From Deltaproteobacteria bacterium (GTDB lineage Bacteria > Myxococcota_A > Polyangia > HGW-17 > JAJRWW01), in assembly GCA_029938605.1 (NCBI GenBank), contig JAOZUO010000002.1:11365-62872 (forward strand): a DNA stretch of 51,508 bases. Reading direction: 5' to 3'. The notes beneath the pieces were generated by a model that ran no database searches, was not told the DNA's origin, and was given only the letters and a program-made list of their open reading frames with translations. How positions within the stretch are numbered: the stretch's first letter is position 1; each line of letters starts with the position of its first letter. This document shows positions 1 to 11,411 of this stretch, in pieces. The position numbers and the translations under genes are program-made.

Positions 1-443
1 CTTAGATGTCTCTGGGGAAAAGTTAACAAGTTAACTACGTCCCTCCCGTCCCCTCTCCCTGCGTCGCCGACGAGGCCGGCCTGTGCGAGCCGATGGAGCT
101 GCCGGATGCTCGCTGGGGTGATGTCGATCTCATCATATGACGAGTGAATCCAGTCCAGGGCGCGCCGATAACCAAACAGCTCCTCTTCCGGTCGGTCCCG
201 AGGAGGATCTTCACCCGACAGCAGCGGGCGCAACCGGTCCGCATCCACCGTCACGCCTTCGATGCGGTTGGACGACTCGGCGCTCTGGATGATGGCCAGC
301 CCGCGCAGCGCTGCGAGCACCTCAGGCTTCTGCTGCTGCCAGAGTTCCTGCTTTCCCCGTGCCTCCATACACGCACCCAACAACCACGCCAGACCCGGCG
401 GAATGCTCAGCCGGTCCATCACATCACTGCTGAACGAGTACAA
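1..443 (-). pseudogene. Fic-family protein, N-terminal part only; apparently truncated near position 60
   Basis: Not in the ORF track. Hand translation from TTG at 443 (AGGAGG just upstream): MYSFSSDVMDRLSIPPGLAWLLGACMEARGKQELWQQQKPEVLAALRGLAIIQSAESSNRIEGVTVDADRLRPLLSGEDPPRDRPEEELFGYRRALDWIH...IRQLHRLAQAGLVGDAG. SSNRIEG and LH...AG are typical of Fic N-terminal regions. After GDAG the frame runs into the AT-rich motif at 11-60. The HPFxxGNGR motif is not in the window. Confidence 0.75.
11..60 (+). repeat. Short motif (copy A), TCTGGG..TAACAAGTnnACTACGTCCC plus pyrimidine-rich tail
   Basis: 24-43 TAACAAGTTAACTACGTCCC matches 28861-28880 TAACAAGTACACTACGTCCC at 18/20; both are preceded by TCTGGG(G)AAA and followed by CCCCTCTCC-like sequence. 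Confidence 0.6.
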
Positions 444-457
444 GATCCACCTCCTAG

Positions 458-495
458 TATCCAATTATTATCCAATTACGGGAAAATATCCAATT
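458..495. promoter_or_regulatory. Three TATCCAATT direct repeats upstream of the Fic gene; putative operator
   Basis: Exact 9-mer at 458-466, 469-477 and 487-495, in an AT-rich patch immediately 5' of the Fic ribosome-binding site. Confidence 0.45.
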
Positions 496-653
496 TCCCA
501 TGCTCCACGGCCCACTGGAAGGATCTGTCGTGGTTGGCTCATGCAAAGGTTATCGGCCGCTGTCTCTTCCGGTTGCGCAAAACCAACCCCGGAGGGGTTC
601 GGCGGAGGGGTTCGGCGTATAAGCACAGCTAGACGCTGGGCGCCGTGGTGAGC

Positions 654-1556
654 CTATCCGTGTTCGAGGGCCTCGCGGATCTGGTGGATCAGAGGTTCGG
701 CCACCAGGGAGCGGGCGGTGACATCGGCGAGGGAGTCGGCCACCTGTTGCTCGGTCCAGCCCCAGTCGGCGCGGAGGCGCCAGGCCACGCGGGCTACGCC
801 GCCGGGGGATACCAGGTTGTGTTCGGCGAAGAGGGCGGCGGCCTGCAGGGCCTCCCGGGCGGCGTGCACCACGGGGCGGTAGGGGTCGAAGTAGGACGGG
901 TCGCGGCCGCGGGTGAGGATGACGCAGGCGAGCATCACCTGGGCACGTCCGGTGGCCCGGGCGGCGAGGTCCACCATGGGATCGACGGAGGACGGGGTGA
1001 CGCCGGCGTCGAGTAGGGCTGCGGCGAGGTCGTCGCCTGCCAGGTCACCGCGCTGCGTGGCGTCGAGCAGGTGGAACACGTGGCCGTCGGACTCCCAGTC
1101 GTCGCCCACCACCACCAGACGCGCGCCCGGTGGGAGGTCGGCGATGAGTGACCAGTGGGCGGTCAGCTTGTACTCCACCTGGAACTTCAGTTCCCGGAAG
1201 CGGCCTTGGAGGGCGAGCTGGAGCTGGTCCTTGAACAGGAACCCGTCGGGTTGTAGCCCATCGAGCAGCATCTTGCGACGGATCACGCCCGCGAGCTGCG
1301 GCGGGCTGGCCGAGACGAAGAAGATGGGGGTGTGAACGGGGTGTTCCCCCGGGCCCCGGCGGCACTCCTGCAAGGTGGCGGCCGTGCCCGGAATGATGGT
1401 CTTGTCGATGGCCATCTCCAGCGGAATCCGCAGGAGCCCCCAGATGGACTTGAAGTCCGTGTCCAGGTAGGTCTTGTCCACATCCCAGACAAAGACCGGC
1501 CCTTCGTAGTCTGGCTGCAGCCGGCGCTCACTCAGTTGAATGATGGGGTACGACAT
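654..1556 (-). CDS. HAD-superfamily phosphatase (App1/lipin-like DxDxT), possible phosphatidate phosphatase
   Basis: WDVDKTYL (DxDxT), FFVSASP (motif II), K...VGDDWESD (motifs III/IV); 15 nt downstream of gpsA. Confidence 0.7.
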   Translation of the reverse strand: MSYPIIQLSERRLQPDYEGPVFVWDVDKTYLDTDFKSIWGLLRIPLEMAIDKTIIPGTAATLQECRRGPGEHPVHTPIFFVSASPPQLAGVIRRKMLLDGLQPDGFLFKDQLQLALQGRFRELKFQVEYKLTAHWSLIADLPPGARLVVVGDDWESDGHVFHLLDATQRGDLAGDDLAAALLDAGVTPSSVDPMVDLAARATGRAQVMLACVILTRGRDPSYFDPYRPVVHAAREALQAAALFAEHNLVSPGGVARVAWRLRADWGWTEQQVADSLADVTARSLVAEPLIHQIREALEHG

Positions 1557-1571
1557 GGTCTGGGAAAGCCC

Positions 1572-2594
1572 TCAGGTGATGTCTGTGGACTCCACCTCCC
1601 ACATGGACGGGAGGCTGAGCATCTTCTCCAGGGCGTCAGCGGGTTTGGCGCCCTCGTACAGGACCTCGAAGACGCCTTGGCAGATGGGGAGCCGTACGCG
1701 ATGGGCGTCGGACCACTCCTTGACCACCCGGGCGGTGGGCACGCCCTCGGCCACCTGGCCAAGGTCTTCGAGGATCTGATCCAGGGGCTTGCCCTCGGCG
1801 AGCCCGAGTCCCACACGGTGGTTTCTGCTCAGATCCGAGAAGGCGGTCACCACGAGGTCTCCCACGCCCGCCATACCCGAGAAAGTCTCCGGCGCGGCGC
1901 CCATAATCGCGCCGAGGCGGGTCATCTCATTGAGGCCGCGAGAGATCAACATCGCCAGGGTGTTGTCGCCGAAGCCCATGCCCCGGGCGATGCCGCCGGC
2001 AATGGCGAGCACGTTCTTGACGGCGCCGGAGAGTTCGACGCCCAGCAGGTCGTGGCTGGCGTAGATGCGAAAGCGGGGGCTATGCAGCGGCCGCGCCACC
2101 ATGTGCACCACCTGCTCGAAGGCCGAGGCGATGACCGTTCCGCCGGGCACGCCCCGAAGGATCTCCACCGCCAGGTTCGGCCCGGAGATGGCGCCGATTT
2201 TGAGGCAGCAGGTCTCCTGGCGGAGCACCTCTGTCATGCGGGCGAAGCTCCCACGCTCCAGCCCCTTGGTGGCGCTGACCAGCACGTGGTCTCCGTGGAG
2301 ATGGTCGCCCAGGGCGCGCACCACCGTTCGAAAGGAGGAGGAGGGGATGGCCACCAGGAGCAGCTGGCATCGCTCGGCCATTTCAGCCAGGGCGGTGGTG
2401 GTCTGGATTTTTTCCGACAGCTTGAAGCCGGGGAGGTATCGCTTGTTTTCGCGGTCGCCGACGATGGCCGCCGCGCGTTCCTCATTCCGCATCCACAGCA
2501 GGGTCTCGTGGCCGTTGGAGCCGGCCAGGTGTGCGAGGGTCGTGCCGAAGGCGCCGCCGCCGAGCACTCCGATGGGCTTGTCAGTGGCCGTCAT
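1572..2594 (-). CDS. gpsA: NAD(P)H-dependent glycerol-3-phosphate dehydrogenase
   Basis: GGGAFGTTLA Rossmann motif, SATKGLE, SGPNLA, GAVKNVLAIAGG, GVGDLVVT, SRNHRVG. Confidence 0.96.
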   Translation of the reverse strand: MTATDKPIGVLGGGAFGTTLAHLAGSNGHETLLWMRNEERAAAIVGDRENKRYLPGFKLSEKIQTTTALAEMAERCQLLLVAIPSSSFRTVVRALGDHLHGDHVLVSATKGLERGSFARMTEVLRQETCCLKIGAISGPNLAVEILRGVPGGTVIASAFEQVVHMVARPLHSPRFRIYASHDLLGVELSGAVKNVLAIAGGIARGMGFGDNTLAMLISRGLNEMTRLGAIMGAAPETFSGMAGVGDLVVTAFSDLSRNHRVGLGLAEGKPLDQILEDLGQVAEGVPTARVVKEWSDAHRVRLPICQGVFEVLYEGAKPADALEKMLSLPSMWEVESTDIT

Positions 2595-4207
2595 TGGTCA
2601 CCTCGCAGACGCTCATCGATGGCCGACTCGAGGCCGTAACCCGTGAGCCGGTTGTGGTAGTAGTATAGGAGCTTCATGTCCCCGGGGAACAGACGATCTC
2701 CTCGGCGAGCCAGGACCTCGTGGGTGTGGTAGGTGCCGAAGTACTTCAGGCCATCGGCCACCACGGACTGGGGATCAAAGCCGAAGGGCACCGGGTTCGA
2801 TCCCAGCTCCCCGGCTCTCACTTTTTCTCGCAGCGCGTCTCGCAACCGCTCCAGGGCGAGGTGTACTTCGTTCAGGGGGATGCCACCGAGATCGTCGGCC
2901 GTGCGCAGGAACCGGTAGAACTGGCGGTCCATTCCCCGCGCCCTCAGGAGGCAGAAGGCAGTGAAGGCCAGCAGGTTCGTCGACAGGAAGGTGGCGTCTT
3001 GCCGGAGGGAGCGCACCACCGCCCGGCCCGCCTCGCGGGTGTACTCGGTGTCCCGCTGGGCGTCGTGATCGGGGCCGTCGCCGGTGAATACGTAGCGGCT
3101 CGGATCGACGGAGCGGCCGCGGCCGTCCTCGCTGGTGCCGTCGGGCCGCACGCGGTTGCCGAAGGGATCCAGGGGCTCGGAGATGTTCATGACGATGCGC
3201 GCGTCCAGGGAGATGAGCTCCTTGACGAAGTTGAGCACCTGGCGGGGCTTGGAGAACTCGTCGTCTTCAATAATGTAGCGGGACTTGCCGGCGGCCTTCA
3301 GATGGTCGTCGATGAGGGTCGCCGCCTCGAGCACCAGGCCATAGCTCAGGGTGCAGGGCACGATGTAGATGTTCGGCTTCTCTTTGTTGTTCTTGAGGTT
3401 GTTGATGTACGCCTGTAGTCCACAGCCTAGCAGCCCCAGCTTGAGGTGACTCTCCACGGCGCCGCTTCGGCAGCGGGTTCCCCCGGGAAAAAACAGGTTG
3501 TGATAGCCGAACTCCATGGAGACCGTGGCGTACTCCTTGAGCACCTGCTTGTAGAGGCCGGCCTGCTTGCGGCGGTCTACCTTGTAGGCTCCCAGGTTGT
3601 GCATGAAGAACGAGAGTAGCGGGTTGGCGAACAGGTTCAGCCCCGCGCCGTAGGTGAACGGCGGTAGTCCGAGCAAAAACAGGGAGTAGCCCAGGATGAT
3701 GGAGTCCAGGTTCGATAGGTGGGTGGGCGCGAGGATCACCGTGCCCTTGTTCGCCAGGCCCTTGAGGGTCTCGGTGGCGCCGCGGAGAACGACCTGATCC
3801 TTCAGGCTGGGTAACTCGGGTAGGCGGCTGATCAGAGACAGGGGAGATACCGCGTTCACCATCAGCCCGGCGCCCACGGGGAGTACCCGTGTGGTGAAGG
3901 CGTAGACCCGCGGATCGAACTTCCCGACTACCTCCCTGGCGAATCGATCGGTGGACTGGCGCAGCAGCTCCACCTGCTCGGACACGCTGGTCCGGGGGAG
4001 CTGCTGCCGAATGGAACGGTAGAGCTTTCGGTAGGCGTTGTTGTCCCGATCTCGAGGAGACTTCTTGAGCCGCTGCTGCTCGAAGTAGAGCGTATCGGCC
4101 AGCACGTCTTCCACGCTCAGCCCACCGTTATTCGCCCCGAGTCGGGTGGCCTCCACAATGCGTCCCACCACCTCAACGATGGTGCGTTCTCTATCCTGCT
4201 CCTTCAT
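2591..4207 (-). CDS. Glycerol-3-phosphate/lysophospholipid acyltransferase (PlsB-like)
   Basis: PTHLSNLD (HxxxxD), GAYKVDR, FFPGGTR; start moved to ATG 4207, which has GGAGG upstream; 4-nt overlap with gpsA. Confidence 0.85.
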   Translation of the reverse strand: MKEQDRERTIVEVVGRIVEATRLGANNGGLSVEDVLADTLYFEQQRLKKSPRDRDNNAYRKLYRSIRQQLPRTSVSEQVELLRQSTDRFAREVVGKFDPRVYAFTTRVLPVGAGLMVNAVSPLSLISRLPELPSLKDQVVLRGATETLKGLANKGTVILAPTHLSNLDSIILGYSLFLLGLPPFTYGAGLNLFANPLLSFFMHNLGAYKVDRRKQAGLYKQVLKEYATVSMEFGYHNLFFPGGTRCRSGAVESHLKLGLLGCGLQAYINNLKNNKEKPNIYIVPCTLSYGLVLEAATLIDDHLKAAGKSRYIIEDDEFSKPRQVLNFVKELISLDARIVMNISEPLDPFGNRVRPDGTSEDGRGRSVDPSRYVFTGDGPDHDAQRDTEYTREAGRAVVRSLRQDATFLSTNLLAFTAFCLLRARGMDRQFYRFLRTADDLGGIPLNEVHLALERLRDALREKVRAGELGSNPVPFGFDPQSVVADGLKYFGTYHTHEVLARRGDRLFPGDMKLLYYYHNRLTGYGLESAIDERLRGDQ

Positions 4208-4339
4208 CCATAGCCTCCATCGGGTCCCGTAGATGCGATTCCGAATAGTACAGGTCCACTGATGCCGTTGTCCACAGGCCATCTTGCCGGTTCTTTTTTT
4301 CAGCGACCCAGGGCCGATGTCCTCGTCTGGGGTTGGGTC

Positions 4340-4645
4340 CTATGGTGGGAGGGTGATGGTGACGCGGCCGTCGGGGGTGCGGTGGAGCTCGACGGTGATG
4401 GGATGACCGCCGGCGAGGTGGGGGTGATCAGCGCGGACCTGGCGGAAGTCCTGGGTTCGCAGGAAGTCGGTGAGGAGCTCGATCTCGAGCTCGGCGGCCA
4501 CCAGCCCGGGGCCGCCTCCGTCCGCGGCGCAGGGCTTGAGGCGGTCCTCCAGCAGCTCGTCCATCCTGGCTCGATGCGCCCGCCGAGCAGCAGTCTCGAT
4601 TCAGTGGCGGGTCAGATCCAGGCGGATGCAGGGGGCTTTGGTCAT
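4340..4645 (-). CDS. Small hypothetical protein, candidate selenoprotein (Sec at codon 15, RH-U-IET)
   Basis: ATG 4645 reads MTKAPCIRLDLTRH-TGA(4601-4603)-IETAARRAHRARMDELLEDRL... in frame with the called ORF 4340-4564; starts 20 nt after the upstream gene; SECIS-like hairpin follows the UGA. Confidence 0.6.
4566..4593 (-). promoter_or_regulatory. Putative bacterial SECIS hairpin
   Basis: Minus strand after UGA: ATCGAGA CTG-CT-GCTCG-GC-[GGGC]-GC-AT-CGAGC-CAG; the apical loop starts with G and lies 19 nt after the UGA. Confidence 0.45.
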
Positions 4646-4664
4646 GTGGCAGCCATGTGGTCTG

Positions 4665-5300
4665 TCAACGGGTGGGACGGACCAACGCGAGGTAGGAGGC
4701 CTCGAAGGTGACTTCCCGACGTAAGCAACTGCGTCCCACGAGGTCGGTGGTGATCCGAAGACCCTCGGCGCGGTACGGGTGCAGGTCCACCTCCTGATTG
4801 ATCTGCAATGGTAGGGTCGTCGCACCCTCGGGAATGATCGCGTTCCAGGCGATGAGCACCCGCGGTAGGGTCGAGTCCGCCTTGGAGGACTCGGCGTAGA
4901 TCTCGATGCCGGCCAGGAAGCCGAAGCTGGATTGCATGTCCATGGCAGTCGCGGCGTCGGTCATTTGGAGGCTGAGGGAGACGAGCCGAAAGGCGTCAAC
5001 GGCCCCGGCGTTCCGGCTCAGGAGCTCGCTGTCGGCCTGCTCGCCTATGTCCCCGAAAAGTTGGCTCAGGTCCCCCTCCAGGTCCTCCACATGCGCCGTC
5101 GGGACGGTGTCGCCGGTCCACCCCGCGGGACACTCCGTTTCCGGCAGCGCCGCGAAGGTCACCGGATGGGTCTGTCCCTCGAACTCGAGATACCCATGGC
5201 AACCCGCCGACAGGGCAACGAGCAGCGCCAGCGACTGAATCCATTGGGACCGACAGAACCTACGTTCAAGGATCTGCCTATTCATCGGTGTTCGGGGCAC
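4665..5300 (-). CDS. Hypothetical lipoprotein
   Basis: Hydrophobic signal ending in lipobox LSAG-C; acidic, beta-rich mature region; start codon uncertain. Confidence 0.7.
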   Translation of the reverse strand: MPRTPMNRQILERRFCRSQWIQSLALLVALSAGCHGYLEFEGQTHPVTFAALPETECPAGWTGDTVPTAHVEDLEGDLSQLFGDIGEQADSELLSRNAGAVDAFRLVSLSLQMTDAATAMDMQSSFGFLAGIEIYAESSKADSTLPRVLIAWNAIIPEGATTLPLQINQEVDLHPYRAEGLRITTDLVGRSCLRREVTFEASYLALVRPTR

Positions 5301-5375
5301 TATTCACGCAGCTGCTTACCGTGCGCAGCTTCCAACGACATTATACATGATTCGTGCGCCCGGGGCGTTCTCTGT

Positions 5376-6254
5376 TCAGGTGGGCGGCTTCGCGGTCTCG
5401 TCTGGCAGGGCTTCATTCATGGCGCCCCGGCGATATCCCTGGAGGTCCACCGACACATAGCAGAACCCCAGTTCGCGCCCCCGGCTGACCAATGTGTCCC
5501 GGACAGACGGCTCGAGCAGCCTCGGGATCTGGGCGGGCTCCACCTCCAGGCGGGCCACATCTCCGTGGTGACGGGCGCGGACCTGCCCGAAGCCCAGGTC
5601 CCGCAGGGTGGTCTCCAGCTTCTCCACCATGGACAGCCGCTCGTCCGTCACTCGGATGCCGTACTGGATGCGCGAGGCCAAACACGCCATCTCCACCTTG
5701 TCCCAGGTGGGCAGCCCCAGCGCCTGGCTCAGCGCCCGCACGTCTTCCTTGCGCAGCTTCGCATCGAGGAGGGGATGGCGGGCGCCCTGCTCCTGGGCGG
5801 CCCGGTGTCCGGGGCGGTGGTCTCCCATATCGTCGAGGTTGGTGCCGAGCACCACATGCGCCAGTCTCAGCTCCCGGGCCTTGGCGAAGGACCGCTCCAG
5901 CAGCACGGACTTACAGTGGTAGCAGCGGTTCTCATCGTTTCTGGCGTACTCCTCCAGGGACAGCTCATCGGTCTCGGTCTCCAGGAGCCGGGCGCCCATG
6001 CGCGCTGCCAGGACCTGGGCATCGGCGCGCTCGGTGGCCGGCAAGGATGCCGACACGGCGAGCAATCCCACCGCCTTGTCCCCCAAGGTCCGCGCCGCGG
6101 CGGCCAGCAGGAGCGTGGAGTCCACCCCGCCCGAGAAGGCCACGAGCACCGACCCCAGGTCCCGCAAGATGTCGCACAATCGCTCGTACTGCTCTCGGAG
6201 CCCTGGATCGGTGATGGTTGGTGTCCTGGCTGGAGGTGCTTTGGGTGCCTTCAT
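5376..6254 (-). CDS. larE: ATP-dependent sulfur transferase, LarE family
   Basis: PP-loop AFSGGVDS, NRCYHCK, GTNLDDMGDHRPG, CLASRI, VRARHHGDVARLEV, DLQGYRRGAMN; start placed at ATG 6254. Confidence 0.9.
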   Translation of the reverse strand: MKAPKAPPARTPTITDPGLREQYERLCDILRDLGSVLVAFSGGVDSTLLLAAAARTLGDKAVGLLAVSASLPATERADAQVLAARMGARLLETETDELSLEEYARNDENRCYHCKSVLLERSFAKARELRLAHVVLGTNLDDMGDHRPGHRAAQEQGARHPLLDAKLRKEDVRALSQALGLPTWDKVEMACLASRIQYGIRVTDERLSMVEKLETTLRDLGFGQVRARHHGDVARLEVEPAQIPRLLEPSVRDTLVSRGRELGFCYVSVDLQGYRRGAMNEALPDETAKPPT

Positions 6255-6384
6255 GTTCCTGAAGATACCCGGCCTCAGGGCTCGCGCAAGTCTTCCCAAC
6301 CTCCAGACAACGGTTCTGTCGATTGCGTGCCGGCGGCGGCGACGCCTGATGGAGTCATAGCCGGTGCGGAATGCTCGCAAAAAA

Positions 6385-6413
6385 TTGACGTTCTTCCCTG
6401 GCGGACCTATGCT
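6385..6413 (+). promoter_or_regulatory. Sigma70-type promoter for 6507-7073
   Basis: TTGACG-17 nt-TATGCT, preceded by an A-tract. Confidence 0.5.
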
Positions 6414-6506
6414 GGTAGTGACAGCTTAACGGACCGAATTTATTGAGCTTCATATCCTTTGCACCTGTACTGCGACGGCGGGACGGGTGGGAGGTAGCAG
6501 CCTGGA

Positions 6507-7073
6507 ATGGTGGATCGATTGAAGGACAGTTTGACTGACGACCCGTGGGGTCGGGGCGGTCGTGTGGCCGCGGAGCTGGCGCGCAAGTTGGTGGCGCTGG
6601 ACTTGGGCGTCGGGGACCTGGAGAAGCTGCTGGACGCCGTCGGTGTGGCGGAGGCGGAGGTGGAGTCCTTGCGCCAGGAGGTGGAGCGGACCGAGTCCCG
6701 ATTCGACGAGGCAGCGGTCCATGCGGCCGAGACCATGGTGAGCCTACGCAACGCCGCGGCCGAGCTGGGCGACAACCGGGAGCAGTTGGTGGAGGGTGGT
6801 CTCGCGGATGAGGCCATGCTCGCGGATTTGGACTATCAGATCGAATCCCTGGAGCGTCGTGTTGCCGACGTCAAGGCCGGGCAGTCCTCGGAAAACCGGG
6901 TCATCGACGAGGACCTTTCGCCGGAGCGGGACCTGCTCGTGGCCGGAGAGCTGCAGCGCCAGACGGTGACCGAGCAGCTCATCGGGCGGGTATTCGAGCT
7001 CAAACCCGACCCGTGCCCAGAGTCTCTCCAGGGCGACTTCGACGCGCTGGAGCTCCTGAGGCAGAGCCTATAA
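6507..7073 (+). CDS. Coiled-coil protein; stand-alone paralog of the adjacent kinase C-terminal domain
   Basis: GGAGG upstream; heptad-rich; shares ADL..QI..LE and PDPCP with the C-terminus of 7241-8857. Confidence 0.85.
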   Translation: MVDRLKDSLTDDPWGRGGRVAAELARKLVALDLGVGDLEKLLDAVGVAEAEVESLRQEVERTESRFDEAAVHAAETMVSLRNAAAELGDNREQLVEGGLADEAMLADLDYQIESLERRVADVKAGQSSENRVIDEDLSPERDLLVAGELQRQTVTEQLIGRVFELKPDPCPESLQGDFDALELLRQSL

Positions 7074-7232
7074 GGGTCCGCGAATGGACAACTCAGTCGC
7101 CCTAGCCGCCGATCCATCCCGCTGGGCGGCGTCGCTCGTCGGTTGCATAGGCACCGCTATACGCCCTCCTCGCTCCTTGCCCAGCGGGCGCCTCGACGGC
7201 CATCATCGATCGAGTTGTCTATTCGCGGACCC
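7074..7232. mobile_element. MITE-like non-autonomous element (159 bp)
   Basis: 21-bp terminal inverted repeats GGGTCCGCGAAT(G/A)GACAACTC (20/21 match); TAA on both sides (7071-7073, 7233-7235); internal stem CCCGCTGGGC/GCCCAGCGGG. Confidence 0.8.
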
Positions 7233-7240
7233 TAAGGGAA

Positions 7241-8857
7241 CTAGCCGGGTAGGTCCACGCCGTCTGAGATTCGTAGGGCCTGCAGCATTTCGGCCACCGT
7301 GCCGTAGTTCTTTTCGTAGAAGAAGGGGCAGGGGTCCGGCCGGGCCTCGTCCAGCGCATTGAGCAGCGAGATCTCCCGCTCCATCTGTGTCTTGCGAAGC
7401 ACCTCGAGGATCCGGCGCTTGTCGACGAGCTTCTTCTCTAGCTGGTCCTGCCGGCCCGCGGATTCGGCTCGGTAGGTCCCCAGATTCGTTTCGAGGTCGC
7501 GAATTTGCTGGTGGAGATCGGCCTGGGGTCCTTCGTGGTTCCCTTCCTGAGCGATGAGGCTGTCGAGGGTCATGCTGGTGCCGACGATCTCGTTCTTGAG
7601 ATCGAAGGCCCTCTGATGGATCTCCTCCTCCAGGTCGTCGAGCTCCGCTTCCGCCAGGGCCACGTCCGCCTCGGCGCCCACGGTGCGGTCTTCGGATTCG
7701 GTGAGCTTGGTCAGCTGCTTGGGCAGACCGGGGGTGGCGAGCTCATCGATCACGAGGCGCTCGGCGATGCTGGTGGCCAGCTTCAGGGCCTGGCTCCAGT
7801 ACCAGATGCGGTAGGCCGGATCTCCGGGGTGCATGGACGGCGACTCCAGGACCGGTCCGGACTGGGGGATGGTCGGCGCGAAATCTCCGGGCGTCCAGAC
7901 GGGGGTGGTGGCGCCCCAGCTGGATCCGGCTTTGCTCGTCTCGAGCACCTTGCCCACGTCCGGAGGTACCGCCCGGGGCTGGGGCGCGGTGTCGAGCACC
8001 TGCTCGAGTACCTCGAGCACCTCGTTCACTGCGTCGGGGCGGTCCTCCCTGGCCTTCTCCAGGCACTTGAGGATCACCGCTTCCAGCTCCGCGGGCAACG
8101 GCGGGATGTCGATGGAAAGCAGCGACGACGGCTTGGGAGGCGGTTCGTCCATGTGGGCCTGCAGCAACTGGGGCAGCAGGTCGTAGGTGAAAGGCGGGCG
8201 CCCGGTGAACACCTCGAATGCGAGCACGCCCAGGGCATAAATGTCAGCGCGGTGGTCCACGGACTCGCCGCGGGCTTGCTCGGGGGACATGTAGCGCGGG
8301 GTGCCGAACACCTCTCCGGTCATGGACAGCGGGTTCTCCACGTCCGCCAGGACCTTGGCGAGGCCGAAGTCGAGGATTTTCAGATTGTCCTCATCCCCAC
8401 GGTGCTTGGAGATGCGTACGTTGCTGGGGCTCAGATCCCGGTGCACGATGTTTGCCGCATGGGCGGCCTGCAGGGCCTGGGCGACCTGAATCAGGAGACG
8501 CACACCTCTCCACCGGGGCATGGGCTTGGGGGCCGTCTCGGCCAGGACGCTGGCCAGGGTGGGCCCGTCCACGAACTCCATCACCAGGTAAAAGAGCCCC
8601 TCGTCCGTACGCCCGAAGTCGTAGATCTGTACGGCGTGGGGATGGTCGAGGCGGCTGGCTGCGTGGGCCTCCCGTTTGAAGCGCGCGACGACCTTCTCGT
8701 CTTCGGCAACATGCTCCTGGAGCACCTTCACCGCGTACTGTAAGCCCAGGGTGTCGTGCTCGGCCCGGTACACCTCGCCCATGGCGCCTTCGCCCAGGAG
8801 CTCCTTGATCTCGAAACGTTCCGCCAGCGTTATGCCGGTGAGGGGTCCGTCGTCCAT
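7241..8857 (-). CDS. Hanks-type Ser/Thr protein kinase with C-terminal coiled coil
   Basis: LGEGAMGEVY, YAVKVL, HRDLSPSN, DFG, GTPRYMSPEQ, DIYALG; no transmembrane segment seen. Confidence 0.95.
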   Translation of the reverse strand: MDDGPLTGITLAERFEIKELLGEGAMGEVYRAEHDTLGLQYAVKVLQEHVAEDEKVVARFKREAHAASRLDHPHAVQIYDFGRTDEGLFYLVMEFVDGPTLASVLAETAPKPMPRWRGVRLLIQVAQALQAAHAANIVHRDLSPSNVRISKHRGDEDNLKILDFGLAKVLADVENPLSMTGEVFGTPRYMSPEQARGESVDHRADIYALGVLAFEVFTGRPPFTYDLLPQLLQAHMDEPPPKPSSLLSIDIPPLPAELEAVILKCLEKAREDRPDAVNEVLEVLEQVLDTAPQPRAVPPDVGKVLETSKAGSSWGATTPVWTPGDFAPTIPQSGPVLESPSMHPGDPAYRIWYWSQALKLATSIAERLVIDELATPGLPKQLTKLTESEDRTVGAEADVALAEAELDDLEEEIHQRAFDLKNEIVGTSMTLDSLIAQEGNHEGPQADLHQQIRDLETNLGTYRAESAGRQDQLEKKLVDKRRILEVLRKTQMEREISLLNALDEARPDPCPFFYEKNYGTVAEMLQALRISDGVDLPG

Positions 8858-8987: not shown

Positions 8988-11411
8988 TTAGGGCAGGGAG
9001 ACGCGGAAGGTCTGGTGCTGTCGGTAGAAGTTACTATTGAGCCGGACCTTCCAGGCGCCTTCCACCAGGCACCGGACCAGTCCGCTGGCTTTTTTCGGTG
9101 GGATCACGTCCACGACCTCGTCGAGGGTGGTCTCCACCTGTAGCGCCACGGTCCAGCCCCGGTTGGGCTTGTGCAGGGCTACGCACCGCTTCACGTGGGG
9201 TCTCATGAGGGCTTTGAAATTGGGCATGAGGCGGACGCTTTTGCGGTAGCGGCCGACGCCGGATCCACGTCCACCCAGTCCAAACCCCCCGCCGCCCCGG
9301 CGCTCGATGCCCGCCGTGGAGGGCCGGACTCCGGGCTCGATGGCCAGGTAGGAGGTCACCGGGGACACCACCCGCCCGAGCTTGGCCACCCGCATCATCT
9401 CGGCGTTGGTGAGCTTATGGTGTAGGTCATGGGAGAAGACAAAGGCCGCCGTGGCCCGGCTGAAGCGCCGGTCCACGCGCAGGGTCCTGCGATAGGTCGC
9501 CGCCCAGATCTTCCCCACCACGGTTAGTCGCCTCGGTGCGGTCTTGACCTGCGTCATCTCCCGCAGGCCGACGCCCTCGTTGAGCGTTGAGGGCAGGGAG
9601 GACAGCCCGTGGTCCCGGGGGAGCCCCAGCACGCGCACATTGTCGATGCGGATAGGACGCACCAGGCCGAGCACCACGGGCACCAGCGCCTTGTGGTCCG
9701 GTTTGTCCGGTCCCACGATGCTCAGCAGCACACCGCCGTGTTTCGCAGCCAGGGGGGACAGTCGGTGGCGGTCGCGCCGCATCTCGGTCACCTCACTGAT
9801 GTGGGAGCCGTAGGTGGGTATGACGACGTGGGCGATGGTGGATCGCGGTGCCCGGGCCAGGGGTGTCAGCCCGTTCCGGTTCTTCCAACTGGGGCGCAGG
9901 AGGTCGTCGCTGAACATGACGATACGCAGGGTCCCCCGCCGTTCTCTCAGGAGCTTCGCCGCCAGGGCCAGACCCTGATCGAGCGCGCTGCCGTTGCCCC
10001 CACCGAGCTTGCCCGCCTTGCGCGCATTCTTGACCCGCGCTTTGAAGGTGGTCGCCTGGGCGAAGCGCCCCACGAGCCGCTTGGCGAAGCGTCGGTACAG
10101 CACCACCTCGAAGTGGGCCTTGGGCACGTGGCTCAGGTAGGCCCGGGCCAGGGCCAGCTGCTGGTCGATGCCCTTTGGCTTCATGGAGTGGGAGGCGTCC
10201 ACCACGAACACCACCGAGAGGTTCTTGGGCAGTGGTCTCAGCTGGGGCGCCATGTCCAGCTCCATGCGGAAAAACTGCTTCTTCCGCGAGGCCACCACCC
10301 GTCCCAGCCGCCCTGCCAGCGTGGCGATTTTCGCTGGGGAAATGCGAATGGTCGCCTGGCTCGGATCTCCGTTGGAGGTCGGGGCGTCCGGCAGGACCAG
10401 GGGGAGTCCCCCGGCCCGATAGCGGAACGTCCGTCCGCCAATTTTTCCCGCCAGGTCCCAGGCCACGAGCTGGCCCACGTCCAAGCGTGCGTGGTCGGAC
10501 ACCACCAGACGCCAGGTCCCCGCCACCGGGGTTTTCTCTCCCAGCTTCACCTCGTAGGTCTTCCGCACGTTGTTACTGCTTCCGCCGGTCTTGTTGTGCA
10601 GCAGGCGGGATTTTCCTCCCGGGGTCACCAGGTGTACCTGGAGGTCTCCTTGGTAGGTGTGGCGGATGTCCACGGTCACCTTCACGTTTCTGACAAAACC
10701 CCGGCGGTGAACCTGCAGCTTGCTCACGGTGTACGACACGCTCCTACTTCGCCTGAGGGAACCCGGCAGGGGTTTCACCACGGCTTGTCGCAGGGCGATG
10801 GACTGGGCGCTCGCAGCCAGTCGGCCGTTCACGGTGATCTTCGCCCGCTTCGACGCCGGGTGGATGCGTAGGATCGGAACCGCCAGGTTCTTGGCGCCGT
10901 TGTGTCGGGGATACGACAGGGTGTAGCGCCCTTCCGAATAGCGTGTGGGAACCGTCAGGGTGTACTCCACCGTGGACTTGCCACCGGGCGCCACCGGGAA
11001 GACCTGCAGGTGCACTTCGTTGGCCCAAATCCAGTACAGCAGCGCCGGATCCCGGGGCGTGTGAGGTCCGAACCCCGTCAGCTTTTTGTACAGCGCCGCC
11101 GCCTTTCCGGCCTCCATGAGCTCGCCCTTGTACCAGCGCTTTTTCCCCTGGCCCCGGATGCGCAGCCCCGTGGCCGCCGCTCCGTAGGGCAGGTGGATGC
11201 GCAACGACGCCTCCTCGTGGCGCTTGCCGGCGTTGGCAAAGGTGCGCCGGATCGTAAAGACGGCCACTCCCTTTTTCAGCCGCACGTCCACCCTGTGGGC
11301 TACCTCCTTGAGGGGCTGGCGCAGGGTCGCGGTCAAGGTGTCAGCCGCCGCCGGTGGCGCCCCGAGGGCCAGCAGCAGCAACGCAATGGGCATGGTCTGG
11401 ATGGTTCGCAT
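8988..11411 (-). CDS. Secreted VIT + proprotein-convertase P-domain + VWA protein
   Basis: Signal peptide; VIT-like N-terminus (RRTFAN...LPYGAAATGLR...VFPVAPG); P-domain (VDIRHTYQGDL...LVTPGG...GTWRLVVSD...G.LVAW); MIDAS VVDASHSM; C-terminal VSPVTSYL. Confidence 0.8.
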   Translation of the reverse strand: MRTIQTMPIALLLLALGAPPAAADTLTATLRQPLKEVAHRVDVRLKKGVAVFTIRRTFANAGKRHEEASLRIHLPYGAAATGLRIRGQGKKRWYKGELMEAGKAAALYKKLTGFGPHTPRDPALLYWIWANEVHLQVFPVAPGGKSTVEYTLTVPTRYSEGRYTLSYPRHNGAKNLAVPILRIHPASKRAKITVNGRLAASAQSIALRQAVVKPLPGSLRRSRSVSYTVSKLQVHRRGFVRNVKVTVDIRHTYQGDLQVHLVTPGGKSRLLHNKTGGSSNNVRKTYEVKLGEKTPVAGTWRLVVSDHARLDVGQLVAWDLAGKIGGRTFRYRAGGLPLVLPDAPTSNGDPSQATIRISPAKIATLAGRLGRVVASRKKQFFRMELDMAPQLRPLPKNLSVVFVVDASHSMKPKGIDQQLALARAYLSHVPKAHFEVVLYRRFAKRLVGRFAQATTFKARVKNARKAGKLGGGNGSALDQGLALAAKLLRERRGTLRIVMFSDDLLRPSWKNRNGLTPLARAPRSTIAHVVIPTYGSHISEVTEMRRDRHRLSPLAAKHGGVLLSIVGPDKPDHKALVPVVLGLVRPIRIDNVRVLGLPRDHGLSSLPSTLNEGVGLREMTQVKTAPRRLTVVGKIWAATYRRTLRVDRRFSRATAAFVFSHDLHHKLTNAEMMRVAKLGRVVSPVTSYLAIEPGVRPSTAGIERRGGGGFGLGGRGSGVGRYRKSVRLMPNFKALMRPHVKRCVALHKPNRGWTVALQVETTLDEVVDVIPPKKASGLVRCLVEGAWKVRLNSNFYRQHQTFRVSLP

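Follow-up and report, generated by a model that had tools for sequence, protein, structure and literature searches.

Does the TGA at positions 4603..4601 on the minus strand of this 51,508-nt stretch of DNA (the window) end one short gene, or does it specify selenocysteine (Sec) within a longer one? Table-11 ORF calling yields two pieces, 4601..4825 and 4340..4564, and an earlier note on this DNA, made from its letters alone, had proposed that they belong to an unrecognised selenoprotein. We found the layout described there on the minus strand: the two ORFs lie in one frame, separated by one TGA and 12 sense codons, and between the ATG at 4645..4643 and the TAG at 4342..4340 this TGA is the sole interruption. 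Translation through it gives a product of 101 amino acids, as the note had stated (candidate selenoprotein CDS, 4340..4645, minus strand), in which the TGA is codon 15 (U15; 4601..4603). The residues from the ATG to the TGA are MTKAPCIRLDLTRH, on which the 4601..4825 ORF also ends; the 12 codons after the TGA, I16 to R27 (4565..4600, minus strand), encode IETAARRAHRAR and would be left untranslated if the start were Met28 at 4564, where the 4340..4564 ORF begins. The entry in the public protein collection (P0002) is this 74-aa piece alone, and the 101-aa read-through protein, stored with C in place of U, is referred to as P0001. The ATG is placed exactly 14 codons ahead of the TGA in the window gene and in two of the TGA-containing homologs described below (L055 and G181). 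Between the last base of the preceding gene and the ATG are 19 intergenic bases, a distance of 20 nt that agrees with the earlier count, and no obvious Shine-Dalgarno sequence precedes the ATG at 4645. On the comparisons that follow, we predict that the UGA at 4603..4601 very probably encodes Sec and that the two annotated ORFs would be one gene.

The read-through protein belongs to a small family. An exhaustive phmmer search of 1.84 billion cluster representatives returned 121 proteins at E ≤ 0.001, nearly all of 85-125 aa (about 120 clusters at 50% identity), and the homologs span residues 6-97 of the 101-aa candidate. We aligned P0001 with 108 full-length homologs, all natural Cys forms (alignment A1, 109 rows), leaving out truncated, long or multi-stretch sequences (P0003, P0037, P0053, P0059, P0066, P0067, P0084, P0085, P0095, P0097, P0103, P0106 and P0110). 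Only two columns of A1 are invariant, C15, which is the TGA position and the family's only invariant Cys, and R71; the consensus reads L.L..HCIETAARR...ELL..FLE..DF..LRA..P.LAGG, and the IETAARRAHR motif that follows U15 in the window gene is kept across the family. The statement in the earlier note that homologs have Cys at this position was right for all 108 natural Cys forms. Two of the outcomes that the note had named as telling against Sec were not seen among the homologs, whose conserved N-terminus, L.L..HC[IV][EQ]T, spans the TGA position instead of starting at the Met at 4564, and which have Cys there, never Trp or Arg.

The family is largely without annotation. P0001 had no match at E ≤ 1 in local copies of Pfam and NCBIfam, and a search of the ESM Atlas with the homolog P0004 returned 'hypothetical protein' clusters only. 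A precomputed label, PF27306.1, is attached to P0004 and P0005; PF27306 was not returned by the local Pfam copy, and no mention of it was found in the literature. Two fusion forms were noted, one of 433 aa with the family domain C-terminal to a radical SAM domain (P0053) and one of 363 aa with the domain N-terminal to approximately 270 residues that have no Pfam hit (P0067).

At the DNA level, the Cys codon is replaced by TGA in four divergent sequences, namely the window, G001 and G181, which are genomes from the window's order, and a metagenome contig (L055), and it is TGC or TGT in all 31 other homologous loci. Thus the same codon is TGA in three divergent sequences besides the window, and the earlier concern that the TGA might be seen in no other genome is answered. 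Among 21 credible loci examined in a class-wide sample of 401 genomes, TGA was found in the window, G001 and G181 and TGC or TGT in the other 18; within the window's order the family is present in 6 of 23 genomes, three with TGA and three with Cys. A phylum-wide sample, also of 401 genomes, added 16 copies in 15 genomes with no internal stop, and all 13 copies that were translated have Cys (13/13). These locus counts omit the weak hits L038, L040 and L043-L049, as well as L073, L081 and L082, which were missed by single-sequence tblastn and were reported without internal stops. In G001, the DNA around the homolog (L021) has no ATG, GTG or TTG within 15 codons of the TGA, leaving the start of that gene unclear, and the frame upstream crosses a (GGACCC)n repeat that reads RTRTRT....

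A degenerate DNA pattern specific to TGA forms was also run against two public collections and gave 11 hits; because the pattern demands an H ahead of U and AAR[RQK]A behind it, TGA forms lacking this motif may be missed. Two of its four genome hits were true (G001 and G181, found again) and one of its seven metagenome hits (L055). The other eight were rejected as chance matches, the family's C-terminal motif being absent from them. Five database proteins (P0003, P0005, P0006, P0059 and P0103) begin at or shortly after the Cys/Sec position, and we suspect from their sequences that they are probably further TGA forms trimmed by gene callers.

The four TGA forms are only ~44% identical overall, yet all keep [IL]RL.L..H-U-[IV]ETAAR[RQ]A, and RLDLTRH-U-IETAARRAHR is conserved around the TGA of the window gene; conservation on both sides of residue 15, which the earlier note had proposed to look for, is found across the TGA forms and the Cys homologs alike. 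Between the window gene and its nearest relative, L055, codons 16-27 carry five synonymous and no non-synonymous changes and codons 8-14 encode the same protein, against whole-gene values of pN 0.152 and pS 0.33. Since the 12 codons after the TGA and the other flank are both conserved, a start at Met28 is disfavoured, and the conservation argues against a decaying pseudogene. In a quick tree, all Sec rows and the five truncated rows, which were labelled Sec by supposition, fall into one 12-row clade together with three Cys rows, with weak support (SH-aLRT 87). The four TGA forms are thus kin within one subclade and not independent, and Sec use looks confined to a subclade centred on the window's order; a tree with this support (SH-aLRT 87) speaks neither for nor against a single origin of the Sec forms.

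Bacterial recoding signals such as the E. coli fdhF-type bSECIS are found inside the gene, immediately 3′ of the UGA. A SECIS-like hairpin, GCUCGGCG-GGCG-CAUCGAGC, is present at 4569..4588 (minus strand), with the 5′ arm at 4588..4581, the loop at 4580..4577 and the 3′ arm at 4576..4569. The hairpin and its G-initiated 4-nt loop described in the earlier note are real, but we count 20 nt from the UGA to the loop, not 19; the stem begins 12 nt after the UGA. Seven of the eight stem positions pair in the window, six plus one around a single C.A mismatch. All four TGA forms have a hairpin in the same register, with an 8-position stem 12 nt past the UGA and a GGCG loop, and pair at 7 (window), 8 (G001), 5 (G181) and 7 (L055) of the 8 positions; the 31 Cys forms pair at a mean of 3.35 positions in this register (range 1-6), some reaching 5-6 of 8. 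The folding energies of the corresponding 26-nt windows are -8.7 kcal/mol for the window gene and -18.4, -11.3 and -12.0 kcal/mol for the other three TGA forms. One pair of the stem is GCU..CGA in the window gene and L055 versus GCC..CGG in G001 and G181, with both sides changed at synonymous third positions, which is a double synonymous compensatory change, and the G.U pair of the window's stem is G-C in L055.

The hairpin agrees with published bSECIS constraints, which call for a loop of 3-9 nt with G in the first two loop positions, a distance of 16-37 nt from the UGA, a minimum free energy ≤ -7.5 kcal/mol and an upper stem of 4-16 bp (PMC13188914, Fig. 2 legend): the window has GGCG at 20 nt, and when a 26-nt segment is folded alone, this hairpin is its structure of lowest energy (-8.7 kcal/mol). 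It is not part of the RNAfold minimum-energy fold of a 60-nt stretch. A strict contiguous-stem check discriminates poorly, passing two of the four TGA forms (the window gene fails) and also 4 of the 31 Cys forms. The hairpin overlaps the conserved AARRAHR codons, and this motif is partly self-complementary in GC-rich codons. An Rfam scan of 4400..4700 at E ≤ 10 gave two chance matches only, to lncRNA and miRNA models. Compared with the fdhF-type element, the window hairpin shares the position just 3′ of the UGA and the small GG-initial loop, and differs in its loop sequence (GGCG instead of GGUC), its C.A mismatch and its lack of an Rfam match. Its geometry is very close to that of the SECIS of an FdhA-like gene in the same genome, where a stem of 8 pairs starts at +10 and the GGUCU loop at +18; selD, also in this genome, differs from the candidate and the FdhA-like gene in that the loop of its element is CCCG and not of their GG type. 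We regard the SECIS evidence as supportive and not decisive alone.

The genome (359 contigs, 92% complete) encodes the machinery required for such recoding: selA, selB, tRNA-Sec (68.9 bits) and selD are all present above curated cut-offs, and selD is itself of the Sec type, so that the absence of Sec machinery that the earlier note had listed as a counter-argument does not apply. Related genomes holding the family have selB in 5 of 5 cases and selA in 4 of 5, the one miss being G181, which is 65% complete. The selD gene carries one in-frame TGA in the context SCAG-U-AAK (L001, G000:C313, locus position 1531), which makes SelD, the selenophosphate synthetase of this genome, a selenoprotein as well. 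A second gene in the genome, encoding an FdhA-like molybdopterin oxidoreductase, has its TGA in the context HCARL-U-HSS (L085, G000:C342, TGA at locus position 1897), followed by a textbook-type SECIS; its N-terminal piece scores 149.5 bits, under the TIGR01553 cut-off.

We considered whether the TGA could instead be a lesion in a gene of the Cys form, either a nonsense mutation from TGC to TGA or an assembly error, with no full-length protein made. Cys is by far the commoner state, the assembly is fragmented into 359 contigs at 92% completeness, and gene callers do split the gene, P0002 being the 74-aa ORF, all of which would fit; yet a lesion is hard to reconcile with the sharing of this TGA codon by four sequences of ~44% identity whose frames are intact on both sides, with the absence of non-synonymous changes against five synonymous ones in codons 16-27, and with the full Sec machinery of the genome. 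The read evidence points the same way. A contig from the likely source sequencing run matches the window exactly over 4200..4900, and a 250-nt contig from a different study (X3; cold seep, depth 2.2) covers 4421..4670 with five differences, of which, among the four listed, two are synonymous and two fall at codons 36-37 in a variable loop, none being at 4601..4603; contigs X2 and X4 lie outside the TGA, and no RNA run with the stretch was listed among public sequencing runs. The independent X3 contig keeps the TGA, which speaks against an assembly error, and we give a lesion of either kind very little credence.

Similarly improbable, in our judgement, is that the real gene is the 74-aa ORF from the Met at 4564, preceded at 4645..4601 by a leader or a separate short ORF for which the TGA is a true stop. 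A start-capable codon is kept at this point in the nearest relatives, two database proteins (P0003 and P0006) are called from MDDLLEDR, and the helical hairpin partner and the C-terminal sheet of the predicted fold both come after Met28, but a product of 74 aa would be without strand 1, the greater part of helix 1 and the position of the family's only invariant Cys. Moreover, the Cys-form homologs are continuous through this point, codons 16-27 are under purifying selection, and neither G001 (...RARQDEAL) nor G181 (...RERMERAF) has a Met at position 28, the Met of the latter lying three residues earlier. Less probable still would be read-through without Sec, by near-cognate insertion of Trp or Cys or through a local change of the code. 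The inserted residue is predicted from sequence comparison, but TGA is an ordinary stop here, ending the adjacent upstream 211-aa gene at 4667..4665; the other in-frame TGAs found within genes are at Sec-type positions in selD and the FdhA-like gene only; the homologs invariably have at this position a Cys, the residue classically paired with Sec; and the hairpin is common to the TGA forms and weaker at the same register in the Cys forms. We therefore retain Sec insertion as the preferred reading, in which the hairpin at 4588..4569, 12 nt downstream, would direct SelB and tRNA-Sec of this genome to recode the UGA at 4603..4601 and so give a 101-aa member of a small uncharacterised alpha/beta family; that selenium is actually inserted is what we infer from these comparisons.

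The assignment to an alpha/beta fold comes from an AlphaFold2 model built on alignment A1 (mean pLDDT 89.9, pTM 0.80), which comprises a strand (residues 6-10), a helix (16-36), a low-confidence loop, a second helix (46-64), two short helices and strands at 84-89 and 95-98, a predicted arrangement of one strand, a helical hairpin and a two-stranded C-terminal sheet. In the model, helix 1 is capped at its N-terminus by U15. A helix N-cap is a classic site for a reactive thiol or selenol, and the position of the sole invariant Cys, here Sec, would suit a reactive nucleophile. No similar structure was retrieved: a Foldseek search of the PDB with the model found nothing at E ≤ 0.001 (E ≥ 0.1), the VIA wide fold search gave only generic helical hairpins at Z ≤ 5.8, and a sequence-profile search of the PDB had nothing below E 0.3. 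A homodimer prediction from an alignment of Cys homologs (A3) gave no answer (score 0.00) and counts neither way.

There is no Cys within three residues of U15 and no CxxU or UxxC motif, bearing out the remark in the earlier note that RH-U-IET is not a thioredoxin-like context. A selenoprotein of the thioredoxin fold was considered and rejected on the absence of this motif and on the modelled order of strand, helical hairpin and two strands; no thioredoxin-fold match was found either, although a missing match alone would be inconclusive. A second Cys of the window protein, C39 (in KPCA; 4529..4531, minus strand), lies in the low-confidence loop between the helices, is conserved only in the window protein and P0003-P0006, and is absent from G001 and G181. 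As speculation, C39 might act as the resolving Cys of U15 among these nearest relatives.

On the minus strand, the genes around the candidate are ordered LarE-type sulfur transferase, 211-aa gene, Sec gene, PlsB-like acyltransferase, GpsA and APP1-like phosphatase. The LarE-type ATP-dependent sulfur transferase (PP-loop; 5376..6380; TIGR00268, 305 bits against a cut-off of 150) lies upstream and in the same orientation, as the earlier note had recognised, and the 211-aa gene (4665..5300), which is the one that ends at a functional TGA stop, has a lipoprotein-like N-terminus (LSAGC) and no family hit. Downstream and co-oriented is the PlsB-like acyltransferase (2591..4282), followed by GpsA (1572..2594) and the APP1-like phosphatase, which has a phosphatidate phosphatase domain (654..1556). 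A co-oriented glycerolipid gene set (654..4282, minus strand) is thus found directly downstream of the Sec gene. L055 has the window's order from LarE to GpsA, with a gene of similar size at the position of the 211-aa gene. In G001, the acyltransferase likewise comes after the homolog and is the only neighbour shared with the window; the LarE neighbour is shared by the window and L055 only and is absent at G001. A few kb upstream in the window are a Ser/Thr protein kinase gene (7241..8857, minus strand) and a VIT-VWA gene with a proprotein-convertase P-domain (8988..11411, minus strand), which appear unrelated to the Sec gene.

The Cys forms of other lineages have different neighbours, which suggest a link to the ORP ('orange protein') system. 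In the phylum-wide sample, orp-type genes adjoin the family gene at 6 of 13 loci, all Cys forms. These six clusters contain MinD/ParA ATPases with a 4Fe-4S ferredoxin insert, sigma-54/PAS activators, Mrp/NBP35 (NUBPL-type) proteins that are often fused to a NifX-like Nitro_FeMo-Co domain, and stand-alone NifX-like proteins. At L083, an OrpR-like activator gene is followed by MinD-Fer4, the family gene (with a 4-nt overlap with its neighbour) and Mrp-NifX. In the class-wide sample, a sigma-54/PAS activator is directly downstream at two loci, and other neighbours are DUF134, NifX-like, CGGC, glutaredoxin and DCC1-like genes. Membership of ORP-type operons is thus found for some Cys forms and not for the TGA forms in the window, G001, G181 and L055. 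The window genome does have two ORP-like clusters, one on contig C275 (~1-5100) with an OrpR-like sigma-54/PAS activator and two MinD-Fer4 genes and one on contig C40 (~5300-7800) with a NifX-like gene and two MinD-Fer4 genes; no copy of the small family adjoins either cluster, and the candidate gene is on another contig.

In the available sections of work on Desulfovibrio, the operons orp5-orp4-orp3 and orp7-orp8-orp9 of D. vulgaris Hildenborough are under OrpR, and the ORP complex proteins reported are Orp3, 4, 5, 8 and 9 (PMC6345978, PMC8359166, PMC3897727). As described there, Orp3/4 belong to the MinD-like ATPases and have two 4Fe-4S motifs, while a resemblance to a [2Fe-2S] protein is stated for Orp5 (DVU2105). 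The orange protein itself is Orp8, to which a Mo-Cu-S cluster is bound; Orp9 (MrpORP) carries Fe-S, and OrpR is a redox-sensing sigma-54 activator (PMC6345978, PMC8359166). Some Cys forms resemble this system in lying between MinD-Fer4 (Orp3/4-like) and Mrp-NifX (Orp9-like) or NifX-like (Orp8-like) genes and in adjoining OrpR-like sigma-54/PAS activators. An Orp5-like [2Fe-2S] protein has several Cys, unlike the single-Cys small family, and our literature search found no description of Orp7 (DVU2107; Dde_3197). The differences are that no ORP complex protein is described as a member of the small family in those sections (PMC6345978, PMC8359166, PMC3897727) and that the window gene lies outside the ORP-like clusters of its own genome.

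Since the Cys forms are often encoded in ORP-type operons, we tentatively propose, short of an even chance, that the family acts as an accessory protein associated with ORP and that its Cys/Sec is redox-active or handles metal sulfide; the Cys of the other lineages would have been replaced in the window's lineage by the more reactive Sec. A more specific reading, which we consider rather unlikely, is that the window gene encodes the first selenoprotein tied to ORP and that the family is an unrecognised accessory subunit of that system, possibly Orp7. In the same unlikely reading, the lone helix-cap Cys/Sec would serve in assembly or transfer as carrier of, or ligand to, sulfide, selenide or a Mo/Cu/Fe-S cluster, and the Sec forms of this hydrothermal/cold-seep lineage would have been redeployed beside a LarE-type sulfur transferase and a glycerolipid-synthesis cluster. 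Both the chemistry of the residue and any physical contact with ORP proteins are here predicted from gene neighbourhoods and the model.

We also asked whether the family has been recognised previously. A 2026 review lists 119 prokaryotic selenoprotein families and subfamilies in its Table 1 (PMC13188914). P0001 matched none of the Pfam, NCBIfam or TIGRFAM models that define these families at E ≤ 1, a scan that extends to these three model types and not to families defined by cd- or PTHR-models only, in line with the suggestion in the earlier note of an undescribed Sec family. No entry in the same table has an H-U-I-E-T-type motif, the comparison being with the models and descriptions of its families and not with sequences in the table. 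The local motif of the candidate, H-U-[IV]-E-T at a helix N-cap, is not the UxxC/CxxU, GUxG or GxU of other families.

The closest parallels are the deep-Sep proteins DG, DW and DF, which, in the accessible part of their description, likewise have a single UGA at a conserved Cys and a downstream bSECIS-like hairpin (PMC12013277), and which share with the window gene few TGA and many Cys forms and a Sec-rich former deltaproteobacterium as host (PMC12013277; PMC13188914). The window gene differs in having no sequence relation to their NCBIfam models at E ≤ 1 (PMC12013277), and it matched none of deep-Sep's three domain-less families as far as that accessible part describes them. The evidence for it is of the same kind and strength as that accepted in the accessible parts of those two reports (PMC12013277, PMC13188914). 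BSepDB, according to the part of its description available, was built from previously reported families. We conclude that this is a probable genuine selenoprotein family and that it is probably unreported, with the reservation that the deep-Sep and BSepDB supplements or a groundwater-MAG study to which PMC13188914 refers may already list it.

Collectively, these data suggest that gene callers cut the gene to 74 aa and thereby lose its only invariant residue, and recognition of the UGA as a Sec codon would mend the annotation of at least four sequences and probably of five more N-truncated database entries. It would also enlarge by one the prokaryotic selenoproteome, for which 119 families were counted in May 2026. 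The Sec/Cys switch marks the functional residue and would provide a handle on a small uncharacterised protein that accompanies ORP operons in anaerobes, a system whose physiological role has so far been described only as 'putatively involved in cell division'.
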